Shown one piece after another: positions 32,733 through 62,174 of a stretch of 64,000 bases of DNA (positions are counted from its first letter, which is position 1; every line of letters begins with the position of its first letter). A program made the translations under genes and the position numbers. Below the pieces are notes generated by a model. The model saw only the letters and a list, made by a program, of their open reading frames with translations, did no database searches and was not told where the DNA came from. The stretch is from assembly GCA_963755285.1 (NCBI GenBank), contig CAVWJB010000005.1, positions 94,433-158,432 on the forward strand, in the 5' to 3' direction. This DNA is from an uncultured Chloroflexia bacterium. Lineage in GTDB: Bacteria; Chloroflexota; Limnocylindria; Limnocylindrales; CSP1-4.

Positions 32733-32853
32733 CCAGCGCTCCCTTCAGGCGTCGTCGCTGGGACGCTACACCCTGGATGGGGCACGAACGGCCTCGCGAG
32801 TTCGATCCTGGTGGATCGACCGTCGGGTGAGCGCTCCCGTGCAGACTGCCGCG

Positions 32854-34583: not shown

Positions 34584-35693
34584 TCAACGCGACGTTCGCA
34601 GAACGCCGAGTTCCCTCATCCGGGACTGCGCCGCCTCGAAGGTGTCGCTCAGGTCGGGCTGGTCCGAGGCCCAGCCGAGGTACTCGTCGACCATCGCTGT
34701 CTGATCGATGGCGGGCGCCCAGCCAAACGCCTTGAGCCGCGAGACATCGCTGAAGATGTGGCGCGTGTCGCCGACCCGGAAGACGCCGGGTATCTCCGGC
34801 CGCACAGAAGACCCGGCGCAGCGGACAACCAGCTCGGCCAACTCGCGAACGGACACCTTGCGATCGCCGCCCACGTTGAAGACGTGACCGACCGCACGCT
34901 CGTCTTCGAAAGCCAGCAGGTTCGCCCGGACAACGTCGTGAACCGAGACGTAGTCCCGGATCTGCTCGCCGTCCTCGAACAGGATTGGCGCACGCCCTGT
35001 AAGGACGCGAACCGCGAACGCCCGGAGCGCTCCCGAATAGGCATTTCGGAATGACTGTCGAGGTCCCTGAACGATCGAATAGCGCAGCGCGACGCTCGGG
35101 ATTGAATATCGCCGGCCCAGGAGCAGGGCGATGTCTTCCTGGTCGCGCTTGGACAGTCCATAGCTGTTGTGAGGATGGGGAACGGCTTCGCTTGTCCAGG
35201 TTGGCTGTGTGGGTCCTCCGCAGACCGGACAGTGGATCGCCCAGTCCTGTTGATCGAGCTGCGCAGGCAACCGTTGGTCCGGGTGCGTGAGGCCGTGGAT
35301 CGGGCAGAGATGGGCCCCCTCGCCGTAGACCGCCTGCGAGGACGCCACGACCACCTTCTGGATCGGCAACCGCTCGGTGACGATCAGCTCGTAAAGGAGG
35401 GCGGTGCCCACGCTGTTGGTGAGGAAGAACCTCGAGAAGTCGGTGAGATAGTCCTGGTACGCGGCGAAGTGAAAGACCGCTTCGACGCCCTGGAGCGCAC
35501 GGTGCAGGACCTCGCGATCGGTCACCCCGCCGTCGATGAACTCGACGTCCGACGGAACGTACTCAGGGCGGCGACCCGTGTGCACGGGCGGTTCGAGCGA
35601 GTCGAGGATGCGCACCTGATGGCCCTTCGCGAGCAGGGCGTCGACCGTGTGCGACCCGATGAATCCTGCCCCGCCCGTGACCAGCACCCTCAC
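34584..35693 (-). CDS. NAD-dependent sugar epimerase/dehydratase (SDR) with an inserted C4 zinc-ribbon (CPIHG...CPVCG)
   Basis: 369 aa from GTG 35693, which overlaps the upstream stop (GTGA). Motifs VLVTGGAGFIGSH, YGLSK catalytic Y-x3-K. Confidence 0.75.
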   Translation of the reverse strand: MRVLVTGGAGFIGSHTVDALLAKGHQVRILDSLEPPVHTGRRPEYVPSDVEFIDGGVTDREVLHRALQGVEAVFHFAAYQDYLTDFSRFFLTNSVGTALLYELIVTERLPIQKVVVASSQAVYGEGAHLCPIHGLTHPDQRLPAQLDQQDWAIHCPVCGGPTQPTWTSEAVPHPHNSYGLSKRDQEDIALLLGRRYSIPSVALRYSIVQGPRQSFRNAYSGALRAFAVRVLTGRAPILFEDGEQIRDYVSVHDVVRANLLAFEDERAVGHVFNVGGDRKVSVRELAELVVRCAGSSVRPEIPGVFRVGDTRHIFSDVSRLKAFGWAPAIDQTAMVDEYLGWASDQPDLSDTFEAAQSRMRELGVLRTSR

Positions 35694-46429: not shown

Positions 46430-47634
46430 TGGACGAGCCTTCGCAACGATCGATCGAACTGGCGCGCGAGGTCGACCGCCTGACCCAGCCAGCTGAGCTC
46501 GGAGATCGCTTCGCGCGCCCGGGTTCGAATGGACAGGAGGTCGTCATCGGAGAGGTTGAGCAGCCACCGCGACGCGCGGGCGAATGCCTCGGAATCCAAG
46601 GTGTCGACCAGGACCCCGGTGTCAGCCGACCGAACATACTGCGGCCATCCGCCGGCCCGTGAGGCGACCACCGGCAGGCCAGCCGCCATCGCCTCGGCGA
46701 CGATCGCTCCGAACCCCTCGTAGACCGATGTGGCCAGCAACAGCGAGTGCGTCCTGAACAGCTCGGGCATCCGGTCGTGTGGTACGTCGGCCATGACGTC
46801 GACACGCCCTCGCACATCGGGCGGGAATGCGGCCAGGACGACGTCTCGCTCAGCCACGGTCCCGACGACGGTAAGGCGCACGTCGCTGCCTTCTGCCAGG
46901 GCCGAGAACGCGTCGACCAGCAGACGCTTGCCCTTGGGCCACTGCCAGGAGCCGGACCACAGGATCCGGTTTCTCGGGAGCGGATCGAGGGCCAGGTCCA
47001 TCCAATCCGGTGGCACGCCCGACGGTGTCACGCCGATCTGGGACCTCGACTTCCACCCATGCCGCGTGACGAACTCCATCTCGGGGTACGTGTGGCAGAT
47101 GAAGAGGTCCGCGGCGCGGATCGCCCTCTCGACCTCCCACAGGCGCAGGCCGCCGAAGTACAGGCGGTGGGCGATCGAACAGCGCTCGTAGCCGTCCGAA
47201 ACCTCCTGCTGAAAGGCCCGCCAGTAGAGGTGCTCGAGACCATGGCTGCGGGCGACCATGAGCCGGCGGCGACCGAGGCGATCACGTCGGACGAGTGGGG
47301 CGATGAAGCCATCGCCGCCGCTGAACTGAATCACGTCGAACGGGGCGCTGCGCTGCTCGATCTGCCGGATCTGTCGGGCGATCAGCGGCGCGAAGAGCGT
47401 GTAGTTGAAGCCCTTGCGAGCGACCCAGGGTGGAACGTCGTCGAGGAAGAGATTGTCCACATGATGGCCCAGGCGACGGAGCTCCCGGGTCAGCATCGCG
47501 CTGTGGACCGGCATCCCGCCCGCGATGCCTCGATTGCAGTTCATCACGGTCAGGATCCGGAGCGTCCGCGTCCTTGCCTCGGCGTGGTCCCTCCCAGCCG
47601 CAGCGCCCGGATGAGGCAGAACGGCGCTAACCAT
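46426..47634 (-). CDS. GT4-family glycosyltransferase
   Basis: 402 aa; ...EGFGAIVAEAMAAGLPVVASRAGG... Confidence 0.72.
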   Translation of the reverse strand: MVSAVLPHPGAAAGRDHAEARTRTLRILTVMNCNRGIAGGMPVHSAMLTRELRRLGHHVDNLFLDDVPPWVARKGFNYTLFAPLIARQIRQIEQRSAPFDVIQFSGGDGFIAPLVRRDRLGRRRLMVARSHGLEHLYWRAFQQEVSDGYERCSIAHRLYFGGLRLWEVERAIRAADLFICHTYPEMEFVTRHGWKSRSQIGVTPSGVPPDWMDLALDPLPRNRILWSGSWQWPKGKRLLVDAFSALAEGSDVRLTVVGTVAERDVVLAAFPPDVRGRVDVMADVPHDRMPELFRTHSLLLATSVYEGFGAIVAEAMAAGLPVVASRAGGWPQYVRSADTGVLVDTLDSEAFARASRWLLNLSDDDLLSIRTRAREAISELSWLGQAVDLARQFDRSLRRLVQ

Positions 47635-48664
47635 ATGCGGCCAGACAGCGCTCGGCCGTTGCCTGCCAGGTGAACCGTCCGGTCACCTGCGAGCGGGCCG
47701 ATCTCCCAAGGCGATCTGACAGCTCCGGATCGGCGAGGAATTTCGCGATGGTCGCGCGCAGCGCGTCGGGGTCGGTGGCCGGGACAACGAATCCCGTGGT
47801 GCCGTCCTCGACGACCTCGGACTCCGGTCCGGGCTCCATGCAGATCACGGGCGTGGCACAGGCCATCGATTCCAGCAGCACCAGGCCGAGAAGCTCGGCC
47901 TGTCGCCACGACGGTAGAACGGTCACCAGGCTCGTCCGATAGGCCATCACGACGTCGCGATCCGATGCGTCCGTGACGAACTCGACGGAGCGCCCGGCTG
48001 CGCGGCGCTTGAGGGCGTCGAAGTACTCCGAGTCGTATGGCCGGCCAATGACGAGCAGCGGAACGTCGGGATCGACCGCGTCGATCAGCTGTTCGATGCC
48101 CTTGCTCGGGATCAGCCGTCCGACGAACAGGATCTGTCGCTTCCTCGCCACGTTGGCTGGCGAGAACTGTTCGACGTCTGCGCCGCCGTAGATGACCCCC
48201 GCGCGGCGACCGAACTCCGGGTAGCGCGACGCCGCGTAGCGGGACACGAACAGGAAGCGATCGACCAACCGTCCCATCGGCAGGATGCGCGCCAGGCTCA
48301 CGTCCGCCCCCCCACCCTGGTCGGTGACGAACACGTGCTTGCCGCTGAGCTTGCCGTAGAGCACCGCGAGGTCGGTTGGCAGGACGTGCCAGGCAAGGCA
48401 GTGGATGACATCGACATCGCGAAGCGCATTCAGGAACCGCGGGTTGAACGGGTTGTTCAGCCGTCCGCGCACCAGCCACCTTCGCGGATAGACCTCGATT
48501 CGCAGGCGTCCTTCCTGACGACGCTCCCGATGGCGGCCGAACGTCACGAGCCGGGTATCCACCTCCTCGGCGAGGGCATGGGCGAGCTCCTGCGCATAGC
48601 GCTCACCACCGCCGACATGACCCTCGTCACCGAACTCGATTGGGTAGACGATCGCGACCTTCAT
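47627..48664 (-). CDS. GT4-family glycosyltransferase
   Basis: 345 aa; ...FVGRLIPSKGIEQLIDA...ELLGLVLLESMACATPVICMEPGPESEVVEDGTTG... Confidence 0.72.
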   Translation of the reverse strand: MKVAIVYPIEFGDEGHVGGGERYAQELAHALAEEVDTRLVTFGRHRERRQEGRLRIEVYPRRWLVRGRLNNPFNPRFLNALRDVDVIHCLAWHVLPTDLAVLYGKLSGKHVFVTDQGGGADVSLARILPMGRLVDRFLFVSRYAASRYPEFGRRAGVIYGGADVEQFSPANVARKRQILFVGRLIPSKGIEQLIDAVDPDVPLLVIGRPYDSEYFDALKRRAAGRSVEFVTDASDRDVVMAYRTSLVTVLPSWRQAELLGLVLLESMACATPVICMEPGPESEVVEDGTTGFVVPATDPDALRATIAKFLADPELSDRLGRSARSQVTGRFTWQATAERCLAAYG

Positions 48665-50142
48665 CGATCCGAACCCTGGGCGGCCGGCCGGCGGAGTCGG
48701 CCAGCTCGACCGAGGTAGCTGCGCAGGCTGCCGATGAGCCCGGGCGTTGTCCCGAGCAGGACCAGGGCGGCGACGATCGATCCGCAGACCGTGGCGATCG
48801 GGGCTCCGACCGGGGTGAGGAGGACGACCGCCGCGCCGCCCGCACCAATAGCCGCGAGGCCGTGCACCAGGGGGCGCAGCGGCAGGTCCCGGCCGATCCG
48901 CCGCCTGCCCAGCCCGACTGTCAGACCCAGGATCAGGGCATTCGTCGCGAGAACCGCGAGGGCCGCACCCGTCGCTCCCGCGGCCGGGACGAGCAGCACC
49001 AGGAGGATGACGACACTCGGGAGCGCCGCGAACAGGACCATCAGGTTGATCCGCTGGAACCCGGCGGCCGTGAGCGATTCAGCTACGAGGATCGACGGGA
49101 ACAGCAGGCCCACGGCGGCCAGGAGGAGCATGAAGGGCACGACCGAGGCCACGAATCCGGGGCCGAACAGGACGCGGACGAGCAGCGGTCCAAAGCCAAT
49201 CCCAAGGATCACAACCGGGACAGCCGCCAGGAGGGCCACCGAGACGAGACGGTCGAGGATCCTCCTGAACTCGAGTCGGTTTCCGACCCAGCTCCGTGCC
49301 AGCAAGGGGAATGTCGTCGTCCGGAGGATCAGCGGGATCAAGGCCAGCTGGACGGGAACGCGACTGGCCGCGTGAAAGAGGCCGACGGCGGCAAGGTTGG
49401 TCGAGGACAGCAACAGCACCGGGGCTTGCTGGATCGCGGTTCCCAACACGGTGCCCAGGCCGAGGGGCCACGACTCACCGACGAAGTAACGCCAATGCAC
49501 GACCGAGGGCCGGGTCAGGGCCACCAGACCGAGGCTCAGACGGAGGGTCCAGCCATCGGAGATCAATCGCGCTGCCAGGGCCGCCCCGGCGAGGGCAACG
49601 ATCGAACCGCCGGCGAGGAGCACGCCCAGGGTGAGGACGAAATGGAGCCCGACGCCCGTGAGCGCCGGTCCAAGGAGCCGAGTGAGCCGCAGCTCGGCCT
49701 GGAACGGGAGGGCCAGCAGCGCGGCGGGCTCCAGGAACACGATGAGTCCGTAGAGCGCGATAGCCTGCTGCACGGCGACCGGGAACCCGACGAAGACGAG
49801 CCCGGCCAGCATCAGGAGGTAGGCGGTCGAGGACGCAATCAGTTGCAGCGCGGCTCCGCTGGCCAGGAGACCGGCGCGCTCGTCGGGGCGCCGCGAGATC
49901 TCCCGAAGGAGTACCGTCCCGAGGCCCCACTCCGCGAAGACGCCATCGAAGGTGGCGACGTAGGCGAAGACCAGGGCGTAGGCACCAAAGCCGGCAACAC
50001 CGAGATAGCGGGCCAGGGCTGCGACCAGGATCAGCCCGGTGGCGATCCGCAGTCCGGGACTGATCAGCTGGACGAGCGTGTTGCTGACGACTCGTTGGTT
50101 CAACGAAGCCGTGACGAGGTCCTCGTCGGCGTCCACCGCCAT
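48661..50142 (-). CDS. wzx: oligosaccharide/polysaccharide flippase (Wzx, MOP superfamily)
   Basis: 493 aa, about 12-14 TM segments, N-terminus NTLVQLISPGLRIATGLILVAALARYLGVAGFGAYAL typical of Polysacc_synt flippases. Confidence 0.72.
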   Translation of the reverse strand: MAVDADEDLVTASLNQRVVSNTLVQLISPGLRIATGLILVAALARYLGVAGFGAYALVFAYVATFDGVFAEWGLGTVLLREISRRPDERAGLLASGAALQLIASSTAYLLMLAGLVFVGFPVAVQQAIALYGLIVFLEPAALLALPFQAELRLTRLLGPALTGVGLHFVLTLGVLLAGGSIVALAGAALAARLISDGWTLRLSLGLVALTRPSVVHWRYFVGESWPLGLGTVLGTAIQQAPVLLLSSTNLAAVGLFHAASRVPVQLALIPLILRTTTFPLLARSWVGNRLEFRRILDRLVSVALLAAVPVVILGIGFGPLLVRVLFGPGFVASVVPFMLLLAAVGLLFPSILVAESLTAAGFQRINLMVLFAALPSVVILLVLLVPAAGATGAALAVLATNALILGLTVGLGRRRIGRDLPLRPLVHGLAAIGAGGAAVVLLTPVGAPIATVCGSIVAALVLLGTTPGLIGSLRSYLGRAGRLRRPAAQGSDR

Positions 50143-50195: not shown

Positions 50196-50753
50196 TCACT
50201 TGCGGACGGCGAGCTCGATGCTCATGAAGAACGCGGGTTGGATCCAGCACAGGTGGCGTTCATAGAAAGCCGGCCACCGATTGGCCAGGCGGCGCATCAG
50301 GGCGTTCATGCGGGACGGGTGGAAGACGAGGAGCCGCCGGACATAGGCGAACCTCTTGTCCGTGTAATACGGATGAGCGGACGATCCGGTGAAGAAGTCG
50401 AAGCTGAACATCCCGAATTGATGGCAGTGGGTCGGATCGGTGAAGGCGTTGGCGCAGCTGAAGTGCGGCGTGGTGACGAAGACCCGTGCGCCCGGCCTGG
50501 ATACCCGATGGATCTCGTCCATCGTCGCGACGGTGTCCGGCAGGTGCTCGAGGATGTCGTGGCACCAGACCTCACGGAAGGCCTCGCTGGGAAAGGGCCA
50601 GGGAAACACGCGGAGGTCATGAACCACGTCCGGCCGACAGCTGGCATTCAGGTCGACGTTGAGCGCGCCGATCCTCGGGCTGAGTCCGCTACCGAGAACC
50701 AGGACGTCCGCAACAGACGCCGGCGTCCTGACGGGAAGCGTGAGCGTCGTCAC
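50196..50753 (-). CDS. class I SAM-dependent methyltransferase (Methyltransf_11/23-like)
   Basis: 185 aa from GTG 50753, which overlaps the dehydratase stop (GTGA). Motif I VLVLGSG; ...HDILEHLPD... Confidence 0.62.
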   Translation of the reverse strand: MTTLTLPVRTPASVADVLVLGSGLSPRIGALNVDLNASCRPDVVHDLRVFPWPFPSEAFREVWCHDILEHLPDTVATMDEIHRVSRPGARVFVTTPHFSCANAFTDPTHCHQFGMFSFDFFTGSSAHPYYTDKRFAYVRRLLVFHPSRMNALMRRLANRWPAFYERHLCWIQPAFFMSIELAVRK

Positions 50754-51784
50754 GGCATACCGGCAGGCGCCAGAGCGTCCTTGATGGCCGGAGTTGGCGA
50801 GGACAGGAACTGCCGGTACCACCTCACGGTGCGATCGAGTCCGTCCTCGAGACCCACGTCCGGCTGCCAGCCTAGGGTCAGCCTGGCCAGGGTGCTGTCG
50901 AGGAACTGGCGGTCGATTTCCGCCGGGGGCACTCCCCCGCCCCGAATGTCAAGAGCGATGTCCTCGGACTTGCATGCCTCGAGAACACGGCGGAGCATGT
51001 CGAGGACCGAGATCGGTTGACCGCCTCCGAAGTTGAACGCGTAGTCGCCCGTGTCGACCTGCGCGAACCGTTCCCCGAGCGTCAGGTACGCCGCAACGGC
51101 GTCGTCCACATGGAGGTAGTCCCGAACCGGGGATCCGTCGCTGCGCAGGACCGGACGCTCGCCCGTCAGAACCGAGCGGATCGTTCCGGGGATCAGACGG
51201 CTGAAGTTCAGGTCCCCGCCGCCATAGATGTTGGCGCATCGGGCGACGGCAACGTCGAGCCCGAAGGTCGCTCGATACGAGCGCACGAGCAGCTCGGCAC
51301 AGGCCTTCGAGGCATCGTACGGATTGACCCCAAGGAGGGCCATCTCTTCGGTGTAGGGCAGCGTGGGCTGGGAGCCATAGGCCTTGTCGCTCGAGGCGAC
51401 GATCAACCGCTCCACGAGCGGTGCGGTGCGGCACGCCTCGAGGATGATCCACGTCCCCCGCACGTTGGATTCGAACGTCGACACGGGCGACCGATTGGCC
51501 GCGCCGACAATTGCCTGGGCGGCGAGGTGGTAGACCGTGTCCACCTCGTATTCGTTCAGCGCGCGTTCGACGGTGGCGGCATCGACGATCGATCCGCGTA
51601 CGACGTTCACCCGATCGGCCAGGCCCAGCAGGTCGAAGTTGGTGAGCCGCGGCTCGTCTCGAAGGATCGCCGTGACGAGCGCGCCACGATCGACCAGGGC
51701 ACTCGCCAGCCAGGAGCCCACAAAGCCCCCGGCCCCGGTGACCAGGACGTTCCTGTCCCGCCAGAACGTCGACGTCACCGTCAT
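50750..51784 (-). CDS. CDP-glucose 4,6-dehydratase (RfbG/DdhB-like SDR)
   Basis: 344 aa from ATG 51784 (MTVTSTFWRDRNVLVTGAGGFVGSWL...), with the HLAAQ..., SSDKAYG, YDASKACAEL pattern of CDP-glucose 4,6-dehydratases. Overlaps the upstream stop (ATGA). Confidence 0.72.
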   Translation of the reverse strand: MTVTSTFWRDRNVLVTGAGGFVGSWLASALVDRGALVTAILRDEPRLTNFDLLGLADRVNVVRGSIVDAATVERALNEYEVDTVYHLAAQAIVGAANRSPVSTFESNVRGTWIILEACRTAPLVERLIVASSDKAYGSQPTLPYTEEMALLGVNPYDASKACAELLVRSYRATFGLDVAVARCANIYGGGDLNFSRLIPGTIRSVLTGERPVLRSDGSPVRDYLHVDDAVAAYLTLGERFAQVDTGDYAFNFGGGQPISVLDMLRRVLEACKSEDIALDIRGGGVPPAEIDRQFLDSTLARLTLGWQPDVGLEDGLDRTVRWYRQFLSSPTPAIKDALAPAGMP

Positions 51785-52810
51785 CGGCGCACCGCGATCA
51801 CGTCCGCGATGTTGCCGAGGCCCACCTGCGCCTCGGCCCGGGCCAGGAGTCGGGCCAGCGTCGACAGGCCCGGCATTTGGCGGGGTCGACCTGACGCGAC
51901 GCCCACAGGCGACACGTCCGCGGTCGCGGCTGCGCCCCGGCGGGAGATCGAGCCGAATGTCTGGCGATACGCGCGTCTCGCCATTGCGCGCATGGTCAGC
52001 TCCATCGTTCCGGGGCTGTGCCACGGGTCGTAGGTTTCGATTGAGAGCACTCGGAACCCCTCTTCGGTTAGGAGTTGACGGAGGTGTCGTGGCTCATAGA
52101 AGGTCACGTGTTGCGGGCAGCGAAGGCCCCACCAGGATTGACGTCCGAGCCGCCCGTCGAGCGAGCCGATGTTCGGCATCTGGAGGTGGAGGACGCCTCC
52201 TCGGGTTGAGTGCGTCGCGGATCCCCTGCAGCACCGCGCGCGGGTCGTAGAGGTGCTCCAGCACGTGGTAGGCGCCGACCGCATCGTGGCTGCCGCCCGG
52301 GATCTTGAAGTCGTCGAACCCGATGACGTGAAGGTCGAGACCGTGGCGATCGCGTGCCACTCGAACGGCCGAGCCATGGACCTCACTGCCCGCGACGTCC
52401 CATCCTCGAGCCTGCATTACGGCGAGGAAGTTGCCATCGCCGCAGCCAATCTCGAACAGTCGGTGGCCCGGAGCGACCGCGGTCAATCGGGCGGCCCGAT
52501 AGGCGAAGGTCGGGTTGGCCAGCTGCTGCGGCAGTGCCTCCTGGGCGTGTTCATACGGCTCGCGGTAGAGGGCGTCATAGAACGAGGCGAGATCCCGCGC
52601 GGCGACGCGAGGCGACAATCGGACGAGCCCGCATTCTCGGCAGGCCACATAGCCATACGGCGGCTGCCGGAACAGCCGTCTGGAGCGTGCAGACCCGCAG
52701 AGCACGCACGTCGGGACGGGCTCCGTCTCGCTGGTTCGGGGCGGATCCTCGACTTGATCCACGGGCTCGATCGCGCTGATCGGCACGCCCGCTTGCGGAG
52801 CGAGGGTCAT
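51781..52810 (-). pseudogene. zinc-ribbon SAM-dependent sugar C-methyltransferase-like enzyme (TylC3 / Methyltransf_13-type), frameshifted near 52185-52200
   Basis: N-terminal frame: CVLCGSARSRRLFRQPPYGYVACRECGLVRL (C-x2-C...C-x2-C), motif I LFEIGCGDGNF, ...AYHVLEHLYDPRAVLQGIRDALNPR|. C-terminal frame: |GGVLHLQMPNIGSLDGRLGRQSWWG..HVTFYEPRHLRQLLTEEGFRVL... Start ATG 52810 overlaps the rfbF stop (ATGA). Confidence 0.55.
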
Positions 52811-53604
52811 GGCGCGCCCCAGGTCCGCCACGGAGCCTTGCCGGAGGACCATGTCGCATTGAGATCGGCCTGATCCTTGTACGTATCCATGCAGGCCCAG
52901 AAGCCTTCGTGTCGGAACGCCACCAGCTGGCCGTCCGCGGCCAATTGCTCCATGGGTTCCCGTTCGAGGATGCTGTCGTCCTCCAGGTAGTCGAAGATCC
53001 GCCGGTCGAACACGAAGAAGCCCCCGTTGATCCAGCCATCGAGCCGTGGTTTCTCCTCGAAGCGAGTCACCAGGTTGTCGTCGCGGACGTCGAGCAACCC
53101 GAAGGTGAGGCGCGGTCGGACGACCGTGACGGTCGCCACCTTGCCGTGCGATCGGTGGAACTCGAGCAGCCTGGACAGGTCGACATCCGACACGCCGTCG
53201 CCATAGGTGGTGAAGAAGATGTCACCCTCGATGTGACCGCTCAGCCGCTTGATCCGCCCGCCGGAGTTCGTCTCGGCCCCGGTGTCGACACACGAGATCG
53301 ACCAGCCATCGTCGCTGCTCGGCAGGAGCTGCGGAGGGCTGCCGGACCCAAGCCGGAGGCGGATGTCGCGCCCGCGCCAGCCGTCCTGGTCGATGAAGTA
53401 CTCGGTGATCCGATCACCCAGGTGGCCCAGGGCCAGGATGAAGTCGGAGAAGCCGTAGTGGGCGTAGCCCTTCATGATGTGCCACAGGATCGGCCGCGAA
53501 CCCACTTCGACGAGGACCTTCGGCAGGCTCTCGGTGCGCTCTCGCAGACGGGTGCCCTTGCCACCACACAGGACGACGGTCTGGATGCCGTTCGAGGCGG
53601 TCAT
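52807..53604 (-). CDS. rfbF: glucose-1-phosphate cytidylyltransferase
   Basis: 265 aa from ATG 53604: MTASNGIQTVVLCGGKGTRLRERTESLPKVLVEVGSRPILWHIMKGYAHYGFSDFILALGH... closely follows the RfbF/DdhA pattern. Confidence 0.8.
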   Translation of the reverse strand: MTASNGIQTVVLCGGKGTRLRERTESLPKVLVEVGSRPILWHIMKGYAHYGFSDFILALGHLGDRITEYFIDQDGWRGRDIRLRLGSGSPPQLLPSSDDGWSISCVDTGAETNSGGRIKRLSGHIEGDIFFTTYGDGVSDVDLSRLLEFHRSHGKVATVTVVRPRLTFGLLDVRDDNLVTRFEEKPRLDGWINGGFFVFDRRIFDYLEDDSILEREPMEQLAADGQLVAFRHEGFWACMDTYKDQADLNATWSSGKAPWRTWGAP

Positions 53605-55010
53605 ACGCGGGCTCGCTCGATCAGTCGGGTCTCGCTGCCGTCCGACGGCTCCCAGCGCCCCAGGACCGCATGCGACTGGCTGCTTCGCCGACCCGCCCAC
53701 AGCAGCCGATAGGTCTGGATCATGATCCGGACGTCCTCCCAGATCGTGTAGTTGCGCACATAGGCGAGATCCTGGGTCGCCTGCTGCTCGATCGTGGCGT
53801 CGCCGATCAGTCGCCACGGACCGGTCAGGCCGGGTCGCATGCTCGTCAAGGCCGAGGCGGATGCCGACGGCGCACCGCGACCGATGGCCACCGGGCGGGG
53901 CCCGACCAGGCTCATGTCTCCCACGAGCACGGCCACCAACGCCGGCATGCCACGGACCGGCAGTTGCGGGCTCGACTTCCGAGACAGCAACCACAGCGTG
54001 AGGTGGCGTCCATCTGGGCCATACACGGTCCGCTTTCCCCACAGCGGCCGGATGCCAGCCAGGCGTGCTCTCACGAGATCGATCGCGGCGATCGGGGCGA
54101 CGAGGATCAAGAGCAGCGTCGCACCAACGACGTCGAATGCACGCTTGAGGACCGCTTCGAGTCCCGTGATCCGTGCTCGCCGCAGGGTCACCATCGGGAT
54201 GAGGCTGCGCTCGGCGATCAGAACGCCGTTCGTCAACAGCGACGAAGGGGTGACCGCCATTCGAAGGACCGGTTGATCGCGCGCGACCATGATCGCCGTG
54301 ATCTCCTCGAGCCGTTCATGCGGCAACGCCTGCGGGACGAGGACGTACTCGTCGATGTCCTCGTGCGCATCGCTCCGAACCACGTCATCCGGACGGCCGA
54401 TGACGGAGATCCCATCGATGACCGGCCAGCCGATCGGGAGATACTCGTCGAGGAAGCCTCGGACGATGAGCCCCTCGTTCCTGGCACCGCGGAGCTGCTC
54501 AGCGATTGCGACCGCATCGGCCGACGCCCCGACGATCGCGATGCGCGTCTGGAGGAAGCCACGCCGGCGGTAGGCCCGGACAATCCTTCGAGCAACGAAC
54601 CGCTCGAGCACGAGCAGCCCTGGGACCACCAGGACGACGAGCACGAGCCACGACCGCGAAACAAGCGGGCGATCCCCGGCGAAGTAGCTGGCGGCCATGA
54701 CCATCGCCGTGGCAATCGTCACCGCACGAAAGACACGTGCGTATTCGTGCGAGCCCGCCAGGATCCGATCGGTGTCGTACAGACCATCGAGCCGGAACCA
54801 GATCAGGACGAATCCGGCCATCAGCGCCGACGCCAGGACATGCCGATCGAAGTCGTATGGCACGGCGATCGAGGCGTTGTCCAGGGCCAGCCGCAACGCG
54901 TTGACCGCGACCACAGCGAACGCCAGCGTTATCGCGTCGGCGACCAGCAGGCCGCGCAACAGCGTCGATCGCTCGCGCTGGGTGTCCTGAGGGGTGTGAG
55001 CTGCGTTCAC
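53601..55010 (-). CDS. WbaP-like polyprenyl-phosphate hexose-1-phosphate transferase (large PGT: N-terminal TM bundle plus C-terminal Bac_transf domain) with an atypical, shortened catalytic-loop region
   Basis: 469 aa from GTG 55010, which overlaps the hddA stop (GTGA). C-terminal domain has [23 protein letters not shown]... and ...[10 protein letters not shown]...[11 protein letters not shown]...[16 protein letters not shown]. The segment between, [30 protein letters not shown], lacks the usual ~25 aa ending in SLDELPQL. Other reading frames there were checked and do not contain it. Confidence 0.62.
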   Translation of the reverse strand: [469 protein letters not shown]

Positions 55011-56071
55011 GCCACCGGCCTCTCGACGCCTGCCAGGTCCGGGTGGCCGAACGATCGCGTATGCGGCATCGCATCCATGAGGAGCATGGCGCCGCCCTGC
55101 TCGAAGCCGAAGTCCATCCGGACCAGACCACGTGCCTCGAGGGCTGCCGTGACCGCCGGCTGGAACTCCTCCCTGCTGTAGAGCAACAGGAAGCCGCCGC
55201 CGCCGGCGCCGGTGATCTTGCCGCCCGTCGCGCCATTCAGCCGAGCCACGGCGTACCACTCGTCGATCTGGGCCGTCGACACCCCGCGGGCGAGGCGCTT
55301 CTTCGCCGTCCATGACGCGTCCAGCAGGTCGCCATACGCGTCGAGGTCACCGGACCTCAGCACCTTGAGCGTCTCGTGAGCGAGCTCCAGGATTCGATCG
55401 AGCGAGGCGATCACGTCGTGATCCCCACGCTCACTCGACGTTCGCTGTTCGCGCAGGATCGCCGGCGAGTCATGGGACAACCCCGTGAAGAAGAGCATCA
55501 GACGCCGCTCCAGGGCGGTCTCCACCTCTGGGGGAAGGCCGACCGGGCTGACCTCGGTCCCATCGCGCCCGAAGGAGATCGCGTTCAGACCGCCGAACGC
55601 TGATGCGTACTGGTCCTGATGGCCGATCGGGAAGTGGAGCTTCTCGGTCTCCACGTGGATCGCCAGCTCCGCCAGCTGCGCTCGCGTCTGGCTCAGTCCC
55701 ACCAACCGACCCAAGGCCCTGGCGAGGGCCACCGAGGCGGCGCTCGACGAGCCCAAGCCGGTCCCAGGCGGGACTTCGGACGCAAGGAAGATCGACAGCC
55801 CGCGATCGAGTCCGAAGTGGTGGAGAAAGGCCCGAGGCAGCGCGAGATCACCGTCCCATGCCAGGGGCGCGTCCTGCGGCTGGCGAAACATCGTCTGGTA
55901 GTCCGATGAGGTGATCTGGACCGAATCGCCGGAGCTCAATCGCACGAACGCATAGATGTAGCGATCGATCGAGGTCGAGATCACGAGGCCGCCGCGCTGC
56001 CGGAAGTACGCGGGCAGGTCTGTGCCGCCGCCGGCGAGGCTCAGCCGAACCGGAGCGCGAGCGATGAGCAT
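55007..56071 (-). CDS. hddA: GHMP-family sugar kinase, D-glycero-alpha-D-manno-heptose 7-phosphate kinase (HddA-like)
   Basis: 354 aa; RAPVRLSLAGGGTDLPAY..., PPGTGLGSSSAASVALARAL. Context gmhA-gmhB-hddC-hddA. Confidence 0.68.
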   Translation of the reverse strand: MLIARAPVRLSLAGGGTDLPAYFRQRGGLVISTSIDRYIYAFVRLSSGDSVQITSSDYQTMFRQPQDAPLAWDGDLALPRAFLHHFGLDRGLSIFLASEVPPGTGLGSSSAASVALARALGRLVGLSQTRAQLAELAIHVETEKLHFPIGHQDQYASAFGGLNAISFGRDGTEVSPVGLPPEVETALERRLMLFFTGLSHDSPAILREQRTSSERGDHDVIASLDRILELAHETLKVLRSGDLDAYGDLLDASWTAKKRLARGVSTAQIDEWYAVARLNGATGGKITGAGGGGFLLLYSREEFQPAVTAALEARGLVRMDFGFEQGGAMLLMDAMPHTRSFGHPDLAGVERPVA

Positions 56072-56820
56072 CAGGCCACTCCAACCGGCTGCTGCAGGTC
56101 GGCGACATGCGATCGGACGGTCCCGGCCTGAAGGTCCCTCTCGGCCTGGCGATATCGGTCGAGCGATCCAATGTCCAGGACGTAGTCCGGCGAGGCGAGG
56201 CCGTACAGGGGGAGACCGGCCTGAAGGAGCGCCGGAAAGAGGTCCGATCCGAAATCGAATGGCGTCGCCGGCGGCACGAGGTCGAGCACTCGGCGATGCA
56301 GGACGTAGATCCCGCTGTTGGCCAGGCGACCGAACTCGTCCGTCGCCGGCTTCTCGATGAACCGAATGACCCGACCAGCCGCGTCGAGCTGGACGATGCC
56401 GCTCCGGGTCGGGTCTTCGTTCTCGGCCAGGACGAGCGTTCCGACCCCACCGAACCCTCGATCGGCGCTCTCGAGCCGGGACAAGTCGACATCGGTGAGC
56501 ACATCGCCGTAGACCACCACGAACCGCTCGCCGAGGTACCAGTCCAGCTGTCGGGCGGCGCCGGCCGAACCCAGGAGCTCGCGCTCCGGCGAGTAGGTGA
56601 TCCGAACGCCGAAGCGCGAACCATCACCAAAGTGGTCGACGATCGCCTCAGGGCGATAGTGCAGATTGATCGCGATGTCGCGGATCCCGTGGTGCGCCAA
56701 CAGAGCGACGAGGTGCTCGAGAAGGGGCCGACCGGCCAGGGAAAGCATCGGCTTCGGCCGATCCAGGGTCAGAGGACGCAACCGGATGCCTTCGCCGGCC
56801 GCCAGGACGAGCGCTTTCAT
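56071..56820 (-). CDS. hddC: sugar-1-phosphate nucleotidyltransferase, D-glycero-alpha-D-manno-heptose-1-phosphate guanylyltransferase (HddC-like)
   Basis: 249 aa; MKALVLAAGEGIRLRPLTLDRPKPML...; context. Confidence 0.68.
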   Translation of the reverse strand: MKALVLAAGEGIRLRPLTLDRPKPMLSLAGRPLLEHLVALLAHHGIRDIAINLHYRPEAIVDHFGDGSRFGVRITYSPERELLGSAGAARQLDWYLGERFVVVYGDVLTDVDLSRLESADRGFGGVGTLVLAENEDPTRSGIVQLDAAGRVIRFIEKPATDEFGRLANSGIYVLHRRVLDLVPPATPFDFGSDLFPALLQAGLPLYGLASPDYVLDIGSLDRYRQAERDLQAGTVRSHVADLQQPVGVA

Positions 56821-57413
56821 CTCGCACCGACGAGAATCCGCTGCGATCCACTCACGCCGACGGAACCAGTGACGAACCGGGCGGCCTGGAGCAAGCCCGG
56901 CAGGACGGCGAGACAGCCGGTCGGAAGCTCGTCCTCGGGAGGCTGTTCACGAGTCCGTCCGCTCAGCAGCAGGATCGAGGAGCAGCCCGCACGTCGGGCC
57001 GCCTCCAGGTCGTGCGGATGGTCGCCGATCATCAGGGCGTCGGACGGCTCGATCCCCAGTCGGGCAGCTGCTTCGACGAGGAGCCCCGGCTCCGGCTTCC
57101 GGCAGGCGCAGCCTTCGTCTGGACGATGAGGACAGAGCAGAACCGCCCGAATTGCCCCGCCCCGCCGTGCGATCTCCGCGACCATCCTCTCGTGGATGCG
57201 GTCCACGACGTCCCGGGCGACGATCCCTCGATTCACGATCGACTGGTTGGTGACGACAACCACCTGGAAGCCGGATCGGGTGAGCAGGGCGAGACCATCC
57301 AGCACGCCAGGCAAGAACTCGAGGTCTGACCAGGTGCGGACGTGTTCGGCCCGGTTGACGTTGATCACGCCGTCCCGGTCGACGAAGACGGCGGGTGCCC
57401 CGTGCCCCTTCAT
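56817..57413 (-). CDS. gmhB: D-glycero-D-manno-heptose 1,7-bisphosphate phosphatase (HAD-IIIA, GmhB)
   Basis: 198 aa; VFVDRDGVIN, VVVVTNQS, C-x-H-x6-C-x-C zinc motif (CPHRPDEGCACRKP), MIGDHPHDLEAA. Confidence 0.75.
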   Translation of the reverse strand: MKGHGAPAVFVDRDGVINVNRAEHVRTWSDLEFLPGVLDGLALLTRSGFQVVVVTNQSIVNRGIVARDVVDRIHERMVAEIARRGGAIRAVLLCPHRPDEGCACRKPEPGLLVEAAARLGIEPSDALMIGDHPHDLEAARRAGCSSILLLSGRTREQPPEDELPTGCLAVLPGLLQAARFVTGSVGVSGSQRILVGAR

Positions 57414-57964
57414 CGCTCGATGGGCACCTCCGTGGGTACGGAGCGGAGGGCTGCGGCGAGCGCGTGGCCCACGGCCGCGTGGACGTCCTCGACGACGCCG
57501 TAATCGTTCGCCGGGACATGGATCGCGACGTCGGCGAGGTCGCGGGTGTCGCCACCCTGGAATCCGATCAGCCCGATGACCTGTGCGCCACAGGCCTGCG
57601 CGGAGCGAACCGCAGCCACGATGTTCGGGGACTTCCCGCTCGAGCTGATCGCGATCACCACGTCGTCCGGATCGACGAGGGCTTCGATCTGGGCTGCGAA
57701 GACGCGTTCGTACGAGGTGTCATTTGCCCAGGCCGACAGAAGCGGAACGCTGTCGGTCAGGGCGAACGAGCGGAGCGGGCGCCCACCGTCCTGGGCCGCA
57801 GTCTTGGTCAGGTCGCAGACGAGATGGCTGGCGAGGGCGGCGCTGCCGCCGTTGCCGATAACCCACACCCGGCGACCCGTCGAGCGGGCGGCCAGCAACA
57901 GGTCGATCGCCCGGTTCAGCGGTTCGGCTGGCACTCGTTGCAGCGTCTCCGCGACCCGCGTCAT
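57410..57964 (-). CDS. gmhA: phosphoheptose isomerase (SIS domain, GmhA)
   Basis: Conserved core starts at MTRVAETLQRV...VWVIGNGGSAALASHLVCDL...ISSSGKSPNIV. An in-frame GTG at 58066 overlapping the Wzc stop (GTGA) would add 34 low-complexity residues, so the true start is 57964 or 58066. Confidence 0.7.
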   Translation of the reverse strand: MTRVAETLQRVPAEPLNRAIDLLLAARSTGRRVWVIGNGGSAALASHLVCDLTKTAAQDGGRPLRSFALTDSVPLLSAWANDTSYERVFAAQIEALVDPDDVVIAISSSGKSPNIVAAVRSAQACGAQVIGLIGFQGGDTRDLADVAIHVPANDYGVVEDVHAAVGHALAAALRSVPTEVPIER

Positions 57965-58062
57965 GTGCCGCTGAGCGACAGTGTGAGCCGGTGGCCTGGA
58001 CACGGGAACCGGCGCGCGGGTCGTCGGCGCGATCGCCACCGTGACGGACGCTCGGCGGCTGG

Positions 58063-59645
58063 TCACTGGACGCCGCGGTGCTGGGCCGGGGGTTGCGGCA
58101 TGGCGACCATGTCCTTATCGCCGTAGCCGCCGTAGTAGTAGTTCAGGTTCTCCACCGATCGTTTCGGGACCTGATTGATGACGGATCCCAGAACTCGTGC
58201 TCCGGCCTTGGTGAGCGCCTCCCGCGCGTGACCTGCCTGGCCGCCCTTGGTGCGGCCGGCCTGGACGACGACGATGGTCACGTCGGCGATCGAGGCCAGG
58301 ATCGCTCCGTCGGCGACGCCCGAGACGGGCGGGCTATCGAGCACGATCACGTCGAACTCGTCGCCGAGCTGCTTGAGGATCTCGCGGAAACGATCGGAGC
58401 CCAGGAGCTCTGCCGGGTTCGGCGGCAACGGACCGCTGGTGATGATCTGCAGCCCCTCCTGGTCGGTTTCCTGGCCGACCGATCCCGGGCTGACGTCCGG
58501 GTCCAGCAGGAGTGACGTGAGCCCACGCCTGTTCGTAAGGTTGAAGATGCGATGGGCGCCCGGCTTTCGGAGGTCCGCGTCCACCAGGACCGTACGCTTG
58601 CCGGCCTGGGCGAATGCAACCGCGAGGTTGGCGGCGGTGGTTGTCTTGCCCTCGCCCTGCGAAGGGCTCGTGACGAGCACCGTCTTCATCTCAGCGTCGA
58701 CGCTGGCGAAGGCGATGTTCGCTCGGAGCGTGCGGTATGACTCGGCCGCCGAGGAGCGCGGGTAGACCAACGTGACAAGGCGGTAGATCTCGCTCCTGGC
58801 GCGATTGCCCGGCAGCTTCGCGATGAGACCAAGAGTCGAAGCCCCGACAATCGCATCGACGTCGGATGCCGTCTTCAGCGTGTCATCGAGGTGCTCCACG
58901 ACGAACGCGATGGCGGCGGCGACCAGCAGACCGATCAGGCCGGCCAGGGCGGTATTCAAGAGGATGCGCGGTGAGGAAGGCGCCGATGGAGGCAGTGCCT
59001 GTTGGTCGAATGCCACCGAGTTGGTCGGGGGCTTTGACGACAGCAGGAGCGTCGCCAGGGTTGCTCGGAGGGCGCCCAGCTGCTGGGTAACGGTCTCGAG
59101 CCGGGCTCGCTGAAGGGCTTCGGCGAGGACAGTGCCTCGAGCGTCTGCTGCTCGCTCTCAGCCTTGCCGATCTGACCGGTGATCGCGGCAATCTGATCGT
59201 CGATGATCTTGTCGTAGGCGGTCTTGCTGCCCACCGGGGGCGCCACTGCGATGAGCGCGTCGCCCACCGCGTTGGCGATGACCGCCGCCCTGGTCGGGTC
59301 CCCATCCTGGGCGCTGATCAGGATCTGCGCGCTGTCGGTTGAAGCAGCGACCTGAACCCGGGCTTGGAGCTCAGCCGGGTCGGAGCCGGGGAGCTTCTCG
59401 GCAACGGCCTGGAACAGCGATCGATCCGCCTTGTCGACATAGAACCGGACGAGCTGCTGGGCGATCGTGATCTGGTTCGGGTCCGGGTTCTGCAGGATCA
59501 GGAACTGGCCCACCCCCAGCTTGGCCTGAGCCTCGTACGTCGGCGGAATCGTCCGGCTGACCATGAAGGCGGCCCCGCCGGCGAGCGCGACGCTCGCCAC
59601 CAGCAGCCACGCCCAGCGCCGCAGGACGCTCAGCTGCCTGTTCAC
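58063..59645 (-). pseudogene. wzc: Wzc-type polysaccharide co-polymerase (Wzz domain) fused to a BY-kinase (CpsD/CapB tyrosine kinase) domain, frameshifted near 59140-59160
   Basis: N-terminal frame: MNRQLSVLRRWAWLLVASVALAGGAAFMVS...ITGQIGKAESEQQ|. Downstream frame: |...TVLAEALQRARLETVTQQLGALRATLATLLLSSKPPTNSVAFDQQ...second TM...VTSPSQGEGKTTTAANLAVAFAQAGKRTVLVDADLRKP (Walker A)...VLDSPPV...YYYGGYG. Confidence 0.7.
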
Positions 59646-59939: not shown

Positions 59940-60040
59940 GGCCACGCCTTCTTCGTAGAGGGTAAGCATAGGCAACGAGTAAATAGGTAGGCTGGGCTAC
60001 GGTGTTAAGAAATGGCTAGTACTTTACGCTCAATCGGAGG
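59940..60040. promoter_or_regulatory. AT-rich island (taagcataggcaacgagtaaataggtaggctgggctacggtgttaagaaatggctagtactttacgct) at the 3' end of the DUF4012 gene and 370 bp upstream of wzc. Candidate promoter or regulatory region for the glycan operon.
   Basis: Stands out sharply against the surrounding 70%+ GC. The 59646-60015 intergenic stretch has no credible ORF. Confidence 0.3.
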
Positions 60041-62012
60041 TCGGTCTGGAACGTCGTGACCAGCGTTGCCGTGTCGCCCGAAACCGTAAGACCGTCCGTT
60101 GTGGACTTGATCCGGGAGCCGGACGGGGCGTGGATCGTCAGGCTCAGCGGCCCGGGCAAGAGCCCCGGCTGTTTCTGAATCAGCAGGCGATACAGGCGGT
60201 CCCCTTGGTCGGCGACGGCGGCCCCTGAGGTCGTCCAAACGTAGCGCAGGCTCGTCTGGCCAGGAGGCGCCAGGAGGTAGGTTCCGACGACGACGCGACC
60301 GGCCTCGTTGGCAACAACGGCGGGCGCCGTGACCTCCGCGGACTGCCCGCCTGAGACAGCGTCGATCGAGCTTCCTTCGGGCGCCAGGAGCCGGAAGTAG
60401 ATCCCGAGATTACGCAGGTGCTTGTTTCCTGGAAGCTCACGATAGGGTGTGCCGGCCGGGGTCATGATTCCGTTGTCCCACGTGATGTCCAAGGTGTGAA
60501 CCGCGTTGCCCGCGGCGTCGAGCGCGACGTCGAGTACCAGGCTCCGGGTGGTGACTGCGTTCAGCTTCGAGGACGGTAAGACGTTCGAGTCGACGGCATA
60601 GACATAGTCGCCGGGCTCGTCTATCACCCCTCCTGCGAAGCCGCTCGTGACGGCAAGCGCCTGGTCGTCCGGGTTCTTGAACCACGCGAGCAACAGGTGC
60701 TGGCGCTGGAGCGTGTCCGCCGCGCTGGCCAGCCCCGTCCACTGCTTCGACGGGAGGGCGAGCAATCGATCGAATATCTGGTCGGCGAACGCCGACAGAA
60801 ACGCCTTGCGGGTCGCTCCGGGCTTGGCCACACGGGTCAGCTGGAGCGTCTTGAGCGTGGTCTCCCCCGTTGCGATCGTGGCCTGGTACGCGGGCACGTC
60901 GATCGGTCCGGTGATCTTCAGCAGCTCGTCGATCGTGTAGGTCGTGATCCCGAGGACGCCGTCGATCTGCTTGTCGCCTGATTCGTTGGTGTACAGCCGA
61001 AGAGCATCCTGCGCGCTCGTGGGAAAGTCGGGTGACCAATTGGCGGCGATCAGCTGCCATGGCTGCTTCGTCGAACCGAGCAGGTAGGTCGACAGGTCGG
61101 CCGGCGGTTTGATGAAGGGGTAGTCCGGCGGCAGGTCGAGGTCGAAGACGTCGTGAAAGCTCCGATCGGTGACCCGGCCGCGGTCAAACGTGACGACGCC
61201 ATAGCTACCGAGGAAGCCGCCGGTCGGACGAAGCTCCGCTGGGTCCTGGGTCAGGACGAGGTAGCGCCGAGGACCGTCCCATCCGAGCATCGCCGGAAGT
61301 CGTCCGCTGAGTTCCACGTACGAGTCGAGCAGGGGGCCATACCGGGCCACGCGTTCGATGATCGCATCGCGTGCGCCGTCGACCGGCCCGGCCAGTCCGT
61401 CCGGTACGGTCGCCAGCTTCGCCTGGGCGCGAGCAAGCGCGGCCTGGGCGGCAAGGGCTCGTGTCACGCGATGTGACCATCAACTCGACCAACTGAGCCA
61501 TCGCCGAGCCACTCGCCGGGGTCCGTCGCCCGGGCCTCCTTGATCTCCACGTATCGGACCCCCATCGCGAGACCGTCGTCAGCAGCATCAAGCAGATCGC
61601 GGGAGGCCGCGACGACCGCTTCTGCACCCGTGACCTGGTCCGCGGTCGGGGGCAGCACCCGAGCCAGCCCGAGCAGCGGGTCAGTGGAGAGGAGATCCGA
61701 GACGTGATCCAGCCGGGCACGGGCGGCCCGCAGGTCCCGATCGAGACTTCCGATCATCGGCCGATCGATGCCCAGACCGGCGGTCTGAACACGCGAAGCC
61801 ATCGTTTCCAGGTCCGTTCGAAGGCTCCGAGCCTCGTCGAGCGCTGGCAGATACCGGACGACGGCGAGTGCGGCGCTTGCCGTGGCCAGGACGAGCAGGA
61901 TCACACCGGCTCCGAGCACGACGTATCGGCGGCGCCTCGGGCTCCTGCGCCGACGCTGCCGGCCGATGGGTTTGGCGAACAGCCGCGCCAGTCTCGGTTC
62001 CGGATCGGTCAT
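60016..62012 (-). pseudogene. DUF4012 domain-containing protein (N-terminal TM anchor), split by a one-base frame change at 61464-61470
   Basis: N-terminal ORF (182 aa) has a TM (YVVLGAGVILLVLATASAALAVV) and ends ...GSVGRVDGHIA*. The 483-aa ORF starts 3 nt away in another frame (V/MTRALAAQAALARAQAKLATVPDG...). Both halves match the about 600-aa DUF4012 architecture; family assignment from memory. Confidence 0.58.
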
Positions 62013-62174
62013 CTCATTCGGCCTCTGTCGATTGGCAGCGGCGAGAATTTTCCAAACGTGCGAATGCCATGGATGTCGATGGCGGCTCCCCCGTTGGAGC
62101 CCGATGCGAGCCCCGGATCATGCACCGAGTCGGCGAATGGCGCAGGAAAGCCGTCACCGGCTAGGGCCGATCCG

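Follow-up and report, generated by a model that had tools for sequence, protein, structure and literature searches.

We analysed a run of four genes on the minus strand, between positions 50196 and 53604, of a 64,000-nucleotide stretch of DNA from an uncultured Chloroflexia bacterium; this whole stretch is called the window below. Read along the minus strand, the four genes encode a homologue of the glucose-1-phosphate cytidylyltransferase RfbF (the RfbF-like protein), a methyltransferase with an N-terminal zinc ribbon (ZnMT), a short-chain dehydrogenase/reductase resembling RfbG (the RfbG-like SDR) and a small class I methyltransferase (sMT). Our reading, to which we incline with slightly better than even confidence, is that they belong to a Wzx/Wzy-type surface-polysaccharide cluster and make up a branch towards a cytidine diphosphate (CDP)-6-deoxyhexose together with decorating methyltransferases that vary among related clusters, and that the ZnMT reading frame is broken here; substrates and products are predicted from homology and context. 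Loci used for comparison are cited by L numbers and single proteins by P numbers. Lengths are in amino acids (aa) or nucleotides (nt).

52807-53604, minus strand: RfbF-like glucose-1-phosphate cytidylyltransferase, 265 aa, ATGA overlaps at both ends
52094-52810, minus strand: ZnMT, N-terminal part as encoded, ATG at 52810, 238 aa, premature stop
52201/52202, minus strand: ZnMT frameshift site, one surplus base relative to intact relatives
51781-52200, minus strand: ZnMT, C-terminal part in the shifted frame, about 140 codons
50750-51784, minus strand: RfbG-like SDR, predicted CDP-hexose 4,6-dehydratase, 344 aa, N-terminus MTVTSTFWRDRNVLVTGAGGFVGSWL
50196-50753, minus strand: sMT, 185 aa, GTG start overlapping the SDR stop

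A preliminary description of this DNA had already listed all four genes, and they do lie, on the minus strand, in the interval that it gave; its order needs correction to RfbF - ZnMT - SDR - sMT, and ZnMT is not one open frame. The same description took the first three genes to be translationally coupled. The RfbF/ZnMT, ZnMT/SDR and SDR/sMT junctions are each a 4-nt ATGA or GTGA overlap, that between ZnMT and the SDR being present solely in the restored ZnMT frame, and to this extent the claim stands. Overlaps of 1-8 nt, however, are found at most junctions of a cluster of roughly 17 genes, so that the flagged genes are not singled out as a unit, and we dropped coupling as a sign of a three-enzyme unit.

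The RfbF-like and RfbG-like enzymes

The best NCBIfam model for the RfbF-like protein is TIGR02623 (267.9 bits against a cut-off of 300.25), the next model reaching 77 bits. The protein aligns end to end with the Salmonella glucose-1-phosphate cytidylyltransferase 1tzf (228 bits, residues 8-262), with which it shares 110 of 252 residues (44%), and its naming as an rfbF homologue is thereby upheld. It lies with the SDR in one operon in the window, one gene between them, and directly adjoins the RfbG-like SDR in L004, L063, L073, L149 and L043.

For the SDR, the CDP-type model TIGR02622 scores 219.6 bits (cut-off 278.45), the deoxythymidine diphosphate (dTDP)-type model 173.5 and gmd 58.1, and among solved structures the highest scores go to the CDP-type enzymes 1rkx (148 bits) and 1wvg (146), ahead of 119 for the top dTDP enzyme. 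Its motifs are GAGGFVG at the nicotinamide adenine dinucleotide site (GxxGxxG), SSDKAY and YDASK, that is, Ser-Asp-Lys with YxxxK; 1rkx and 1wvg carry TSDKCY and YSNSK, E. coli RfbB has STDEVY with an Asp-Glu pair, and Gmd has STSELY. In a neighbour-joining tree of 1rkx, 1wvg, the E. coli proteins RfbB, RffG, Gmd, GalE and Fcl, and the SDRs from RfbF-bearing loci, the clade of the window SDR (bootstrap 100) is sister to the canonical CDP-glucose dehydratase clade (100), and the two jointly split from RfbB, RffG, Gmd, GalE and Fcl with moderate support (75/100). The preliminary description had called the protein CDP-glucose 4,6-dehydratase-like and had proposed phylogeny as the check. The profile and structure scores and the Asp-Lys pair agree with that name, and the tree, at the bootstrap just given, sets the protein with the CDP clade and not with the dTDP or guanosine diphosphate (GDP) enzymes. 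We regard the placement with CDP-type dehydratases as reasonable but not strong, and a CDP-4-keto-6-deoxyhexose branch as credible.

The SSDKAY-type sister clade to which the SDR belongs is large and common in Chloroflexota-like metagenome contigs, with hundreds of homologues at 56-86% identity. These carry the JGI name CDP-glucose 4,6-dehydratase or, at NCBI, the name of the Pfam family, and none is characterised, judging by the record names. The clade has no link to 3,6-dideoxy machinery. Pfam scans of the large open reading frames (ORFs) in the window found no DdhC (aminotransferase-fold) or DdhD (ferredoxin-reductase-type) protein, which speaks against a 3,6-dideoxyhexose pathway.

ZnMT: its family and its broken frame

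The ZnMT frame that opens at 52810 stops at 52094 after 238 aa, and 140 conserved codons go on in another frame to 51781. In L001 and L006, which are 94% identical here, ZnMT is an intact ORF of 356 aa, and in blastn alignments to these two loci the window has CTCAACCCGAGGAGGCG against CTGAACCC-CGGAGGCG, one surplus base at 52201/52202. Deletion of one base restores a ZnMT of 342/356 aa without a stop, 93% identical over its full length to P0001, an intact 356-aa orthologue. The encoded 238-aa part holds C-x2-C...C-x2-C, EIGCGDGNFL and HVLEHL; LHLQMPN, PQHVTFY, YDPWHSPG and GNIADVIAVRR lie in the C-terminal frame. As encoded, the protein would be truncated, with only half of its Rossmann fold left, and inactive. 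The ORF at 52094-52852 (252 aa), considered as a whole methyltransferase, was rejected: homologues have 320-360 aa and the C-terminus lies in the other frame.

Is the break real? Several other genes of the window are split. A UvrD-like helicase spreads over three overlapping plus-strand ORFs in different frames (32650-33540, 33429-34076 and 33760-34563), which implies at least two more frameshifts. A DUF4012 gene (60016-62117, minus strand) is split near 61470 into the ORFs 60016-61479 and 61464-62117, and this region has two 1-nt insertions in the window relative to L006, at 61517 and 61462. The ORFs for the Wzz-like protein (58956-59645) and the kinase-like protein (58063-59016), both on the minus strand, share 61 nt; a 1-nt deletion relative to L006 lies at 59111, and their L149 counterpart is a single product of 618 aa. 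The uncompensated 1-nt indels relative to L006 outside the DUF4012 gene lie at 59111, 58390, 47771, 44158, 43600 and 42941. The closest relatives of the window bear Microflora Danica names for metagenome-assembled genomes (MAGs), and the Microflora Danica MAGs were assembled from Nanopore reads only, with one Medaka round of polishing (PMC12313526). Given the other split genes, an assembly error is the likely cause of the ZnMT break as well.

The alternative is that the frameshift is real, ZnMT being a recent pseudogene in a serotype-like loss of one decoration, with the glycan made without that methyl group. The surplus base lies outside any long homopolymer (CCCGAGGAGG), methyltransferase content differs clearly among related clusters, and the truncated 238-aa product is public as P0008 (100% identical), all of which fits such a loss. 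The 140 downstream codons are, on the other hand, open and conserved, and synonymous to non-synonymous differences number 15:13 downstream of the break against 27:11 upstream (p = 0.2); this is no significant shift, so that the frameshift would be either recent or artificial, and relaxed selection past the break was set aside as a finding. Together with the further split genes and the Nanopore-only origin of the relatives, these points leave a genuine pseudogene unlikely in our estimate. We conclude that the surplus base probably arose as an error of long-read assembly, the alternative being that the gene was inactivated very recently. Reading-frame breaks of this kind in long-read MAGs can escape a reading of the sequence alone and change what a gene 'predicts'.

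What family does the restored protein belong to? The restored ZnMT and P0001 match Pfam Methyltransf_23 (PF13489) at 86-88 bits. The cysteines C49, C52, C71 and C74, arranged as C-x2-C...C-x2-C, are invariant in 51 homologues, and the AlphaFold model of P0001 has a predicted local distance difference test score (pLDDT) of 84.7, the means of 10-residue blocks being 90-97 over the cysteine region (residues 41-90). Aligned by hhalign with TylC3-like proteins, namely the zinc-ribbon methyltransferases out of RfbF-bearing loci, ZnMT is homologous over residues 46-273, that is, over the ribbon and the S-adenosylmethionine (SAM) domain (probability 99.85%, E = 1.4e-30). The alignment ends at template column 239 of 386, before the C-terminal domain of the TylC3 family, and P0001 has no Pfam match to Methyltransf_13 or Methyltransf_14 (PF08484) even at E <= 5; the methyltransferases linked to RfbF/RfbG in L043, L041 and L052 score 63, 25 and 53 bits with Methyltransf_14. 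In the TcaB9 structures a C-terminal domain of the Methyltransf_14 type helps to bind the nucleoside diphosphate (NDP)-sugar.

The Foldseek search with the P0001 model has MtmC, KijD1 and TcaB9 (PDB 4rv9, 5t6b and 4e2y) on top, and their lead over generic methyltransferases is small (2.5e-14 vs 1e-12). The invariant H248 of ZnMT, in PQH, aligns with His225 of the DEH motif of TcaB9 (Glu224-His225), the acidic neighbour being replaced by Gln; likewise hhalign puts Gln of ZnMT (in LHLQVPN and PQH) opposite the template's Glu of EVP and Asp of DH. A PQH-type histidine is also found in the uncharacterised methyltransferase 3cc8, and we therefore dropped the conserved histidine as a criterion for C- versus O-methylation.

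ZnMT thus resembles TylC3, TcaB9, KijD1 and MtmC in the succession of a four-cysteine N-terminal zinc ribbon and a Methyltransf_23 SAM domain, and differs from them in lacking the Methyltransf_14 domain of ~145 residues, in place of which it has an unrelated tail of ~80 residues ending in GNVxDVxARR. The 'TylC3-like architecture' of the preliminary description accordingly holds for the ribbon and the SAM domain and fails for Methyltransf_13, Methyltransf_14 and the C-terminal domain. These sequence comparisons place ZnMT in a shorter family of its own, akin to the sugar C-methyltransferases, and not among the members with the full architecture.

The surrounding cluster and its shifting methyltransferases

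The four genes stand in a stretch of ~27 kb on the minus strand, at roughly 34.6-62 kb, that is most likely an ordinary Wzx/Wzy-type surface-polysaccharide cluster. Along the minus strand it starts with DUF4012, a Wzz-like protein, a tyrosine-kinase-like ATPase, GmhA, GmhB, an HddC-like protein, HddA and a WbaP-like transferase. The RfbF-like protein, ZnMT, the SDR and sMT follow, then Wzx, three family 4 glycosyltransferases (GT4s), a family 2 glycosyltransferase (GT2) and a Wzy-like membrane protein; the end is made up of more GT4s, a hexapeptide acetyltransferase, a GT2/Bac_transf fusion and a GalE-like SDR. The neighbours that matter for the argument are these:

57410-58066, minus strand: GmhA
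56817-57413, minus strand: GmhB
56071-56820, minus strand: HddC-like protein
55007-56071, minus strand: HddA
53601-55010, minus strand: WbaP/WcaJ-like polyprenyl-phosphate hexose-1-phosphate transferase, GTG start at 55010
48661-50142, minus strand: Wzx-type flippase; L003 orthologue with PF01943 (Polysacc_synt), relatives 90-99% identical
47627-48664, minus strand: GT4a, a GT4 glycosyltransferase, conserved partner of the sMT family
35690-37261, minus strand: GT2 glycosyltransferase fused to a Bac_transf phosphoglycosyl transferase
34584-35840, minus strand: GalE-like SDR, ~370 aa, with a Cys/His insertion, likely start near 35700

The WbaP/WcaJ-like transferase scores 182 bits with TIGR03025, below the cut-off of 295.55, and its orthologues have CoA_binding_3 and Bac_transf domains; the GT2/Bac_transf fusion is a second priming-type transferase in the cluster. 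In the 1-34.5 kb part of the window, the 19 large ORFs scanned with Pfam belong to housekeeping families, apart from one without a match. L006 (MFD00031.bin.2.172, 'uncultured Chloroflexia bacterium') matches the window at 94.5% identity along 20.8 kb, and since the nearest relatives at this nucleotide identity are Chloroflexia MAGs, the suggestion that the host is a high-GC Gram-positive had to be given up, and with it an actinobacterial origin. The source environment is most likely soil.

A candidate for the 4-ketoreductase or epimerase that finishes the CDP-sugar branch is probably the GalE-like SDR, to judge by gene neighbourhood: in L004 and L063 its orthologues (65-68% identical) stand directly upstream of RfbF and the RfbG-like SDR. 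Its best matches are UDP-glucose 4-epimerases, and it has no Asp-Glu/Lys dehydratase pair. The insertion HLCPIHG...HCPVCGG (CxxH...CxxC) resembles a small metal-binding insert and has no counterpart in the aligned epimerase 4zrm.

The heptose genes raise a different question about the substrate of the RfbF-RfbG pair. For GmhA, GmhB and HddA the top NCBIfam model is the expected heptose model, and for the HddC-like protein mannose-1-phosphate guanylyltransferase (174 bits) comes before HddC (92); all four are under the equivalog cut-offs. The order GmhA/GmhB/HddC-like/HddA is kept in L002, L003, L006 and L007, and L149:2095-7648 reads GmhA - GmhB - HddA - WbaP - RfbF - SDR, with proteins 60-71% identical. 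Let us assume that the RfbF/RfbG-like pair acts on the GmhA/HddA/GmhB heptose, giving CDP-heptose and then CDP-6-deoxy-4-keto-heptose. In all the Chloroflexota-type clusters seen, the pair does come after the heptose genes and the priming transferase; in the 20 kb of L149 there is no HddC-type gene and the RfbF-like protein is the sole visible nucleotidyltransferase; and both the RfbF-like protein and the SDR score below their equivalog cut-offs. The clusters are all syntenic, however, and so amount to one evolutionary observation, and an HddC of L149 may lie beyond the 20 kb seen. In the window and in its close relatives an HddC-like nucleotidyltransferase is encoded separately, and the RfbF-like protein shares 44% identity, from end to end, with an enzyme proven to be a glucose-1-phosphate cytidylyltransferase. 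Known heptose 4,6-dehydratases, moreover, are GDP-mannose-dehydratase-like. We hold action on heptose to be very improbable, and retain glucose as the likely starting sugar of the pair.

The methyltransferases behave differently from this pair. RfbF and the SDR are kept alike in L003/L007, L149 and L004/L063, and what changes is which methyltransferases are there, of what type, and where they stand. In the window's clade ZnMT separates RfbF from the SDR. In L004/L063, a clade of 55% identity, it is found 5 kb from RfbF/SDR, behind the flippase, as one of three or four methyltransferases there. L149 has no ZnMT and carries another methyltransferase, of 298 aa, elsewhere in its cluster, and sMT is absent from the otherwise syntenic L003/L007. 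Relatives of ZnMT at 38-46% identity are found straight behind cysS in contigs of the Longimicrobium type, or in one of the Acidobacteriota type, with no sugar genes nearby; one homologue is in a deltaproteobacterial exopolysaccharide cluster without RfbF. In L065:8541-11032 (Longimicrobium terrae) and L068:5542-7990 (a metagenome with like local gene order) the homologue, here 39-46% identical, starts 14 nt past cysS, and no polysaccharide genes occur within 7-10 kb of it in either locus, so that this branch of the family may serve another function. A constant RfbF-SDR pair with shifting methyltransferases is the pattern of decorating, most simply O-methylating, enzymes, and not what one would expect of a reaction that must come between dehydratase and reductase.

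The small methyltransferase, correctly described as a 185-aa class I enzyme that comes after the other three genes (50196-50753, GTG start), matches Methyltransf_11 at 27 bits, and its AF2 model (pLDDT 93.8) has a compact methyltransferase fold. Its family consists of proteins of 170-200 aa with conserved G21, G23, D34, D46, D66, E69 and H70; a structural search with the model found generic class I methyltransferases only and gave no clue to the substrate. In soil and sediment contigs, 28 of the 55 evaluable metagenome loci, namely those with enough downstream sequence, have a full-length GT4a homologue (36-46% identical) directly downstream of the sMT homologue, and L149 and L066 have the pair as well. 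Of the 34 sMT loci that span 4 kb or more, by comparison, only one contains RfbF and the RfbG-like SDR. It is thus with GT4a, and not with the CDP genes, that sMT forms a conserved partnership. In L128 the sMT-GT4a pair adjoins HddC, GmhB and HddA. Recurrent as it is in soil contigs, the sMT-GT4 pair offers a tractable target for finding a glycan O-methyltransferase.

Put together, these observations allow a scheme to be proposed. By homology, the RfbF-like protein would convert glucose-1-phosphate and CTP to CDP-glucose, and the RfbG-like SDR would convert this to CDP-4-keto-6-deoxyglucose. The GalE-like SDR at 34.6-35.7 kb might then, as its neighbourhood suggests, reduce or epimerise the product to a CDP-6-deoxyhexose donor, to be used alongside a donor of the GDP-D-glycero-alpha-D-manno-heptose type from the GmhA/GmhB/HddC/HddA genes. 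Following the logic of such pathways, the deoxyhexose would be moved onto a polyprenyl-linked repeat unit that also takes heptose, and sMT (with GT4a) and ZnMT may, from their context, methylate repeat-unit sugars. ZnMT and sMT are most likely variable decorating O-methyltransferases acting on a repeat-unit sugar, where we infer O- in preference to C-methylation, and the product is probably an O-methylated glycan.

The preliminary description points instead to a model in which ZnMT would C-methylate the CDP-4-keto-6-deoxyhexose and sMT would add an O-methyl group, giving a branched, methylated CDP-6-deoxyhexose. Some of our own findings weigh against the scheme above, and several of them favour this older proposal. 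ZnMT is flanked by RfbF and the dehydratase in the clade of the window, with overlaps of 4 nt; its nearest solved structures, MtmC, KijD1 and TcaB9, are C-3 methyltransferases; the conserved histidine of its PQH motif falls opposite His225, the catalytic residue of TcaB9; and no characterised member was found for the ZnMT or the sMT family. The SDR, in addition, is 35% identical to E. coli RfbB and 33% to 1rkx, and as pairwise identity fails to separate it from dTDP-type dehydratases, profile scores, motifs and the tree were needed. Scores of the RfbF-like protein and the SDR under the NCBI equivalog cut-offs mean that their exact substrates are not certain, and the syntenic L149 shows no candidate reductase for the 4-keto finishing step within 20 kb.

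In favour of C-branching one may further count the homology of ZnMT to TylC3 over ribbon and SAM domain, and the fact that full TylC3-type methyltransferases adjoin RfbF and the SDR in other phyla, including L043 with an SDR of the window's clade. What speaks against it is that ZnMT lacks the Methyltransf_14 domain, has Gln opposite the template's acidic residues and stands little above generic methyltransferases in Foldseek; that L149 keeps RfbF and the SDR without it; that in L004 and L063 it sits away from them among other methyltransferases; that relatives at ~40% identity occupy loci without sugar genes; and that sMT tracks GT4a. The incomplete TylC3 architecture, the frameshift, the changing methyltransferases and the tie of sMT to a glycosyltransferase mean that C-methylation is not predicted and that an O-methyl group is simpler. 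Of the branched-chain or methylated CDP-6-deoxyhexose foreseen in the preliminary description, the CDP-sugar branch is credible and the C-branching is possible but unsupported; the two-step C- and O-methylation of the CDP-sugar as such appears to us quite improbable.

O-methyl decoration thus remains our preferred account. As it stands, the cluster is one more uncharacterised polysaccharide cluster with predictions at the level of homology, and matters little in itself. The dehydratase comes from a divergent clade of CDP-type enzymes, and the two methyltransferases from families that are both uncharacterised.

Comparison with known systems

The closest parallel for the first two steps is the DdhA-DdhB (RfbF-RfbG) pair of Salmonella and Yersinia, which begins the CDP-3,6-dideoxyhexose pathway. 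The window has a cytidylyltransferase homologue 44% identical to 1tzf and an SDR with Ser-Asp-Lys and YxxxK, both encoded in one polysaccharide operon. It differs in that the 3-deoxygenation genes DdhC/DdhD (E1/E3) were not found among the window ORFs scanned, in that its SDR belongs to the separate sister clade (SSDKAY/YDASK) and is 33% identical to 1rkx, in its Chloroflexia-type host, and in that both window proteins are under the equivalog cut-offs. A second parallel is the GDP-D-glycero-alpha-D-manno-heptose pathway of Gram-positive surface-layer (S-layer) glycans: four adjacent window genes lie directly upstream, three of them with the models of that pathway on top. Here the difference is that the window scores fall far under the equivalog cut-offs, and that the HddC match is weaker than that of other nucleotidyltransferase models.

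A third comparison concerns the product. CDP-vinelose (6-deoxy-3-C-methyl-2-O-methyl-L-talose) of Azotobacter vinelandii is a CDP-6-deoxyhexose with a C-methyl and an O-methyl group, exactly the type of product that C-branching would predict; we know of no genes for it, and it serves as a lead only, as nothing in the window shows C-methylation. Our literature search gave nothing usable on vinelose, on CDP-glucose with a C-methyltransferase or on O-methyl sugars in Chloroflexus walls. One might speculate that the ZnMT family is a shortened offshoot of TylC3 that still C-methylates an NDP-4-keto sugar and that, with sMT, it would yield a vinelose-like C- and O-methylated CDP-6-deoxyhexose in a Chloroflexia envelope glycan; this we consider decidedly improbable, and less likely yet its variant in which the RfbF/RfbG pair works on heptose to give CDP-heptose and a 6-deoxyheptose.

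Lastly, cassettes of RfbF, RfbG and a TylC3-like protein occur in Chitinophagaceae, Chthonomonadales, Bacteroidota and Rhizobacter MAGs, where the long zinc-ribbon methyltransferases are encoded as follows:

L041:9995-11116
L043:6478-7644
L046:9902-11056
L049:9845-11065
L052:5168-6310

What these loci share with the window is a zinc-ribbon methyltransferase near an RfbF homologue (43-50% identical) and an SDR of the CDP type, and the SDR of L043 falls in the window's own clade. Their methyltransferases, unlike ZnMT, which is of another family, have 373-406 aa and end in a WGAGGKG...DSDP domain, and the three that were scanned, from L041, L043 and L052, match Methyltransf_13, Methyltransf_23 and Methyltransf_14. 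Judging by this domain content, the five cassettes are plausibly better candidates for C-branched CDP-sugars than the window itself.

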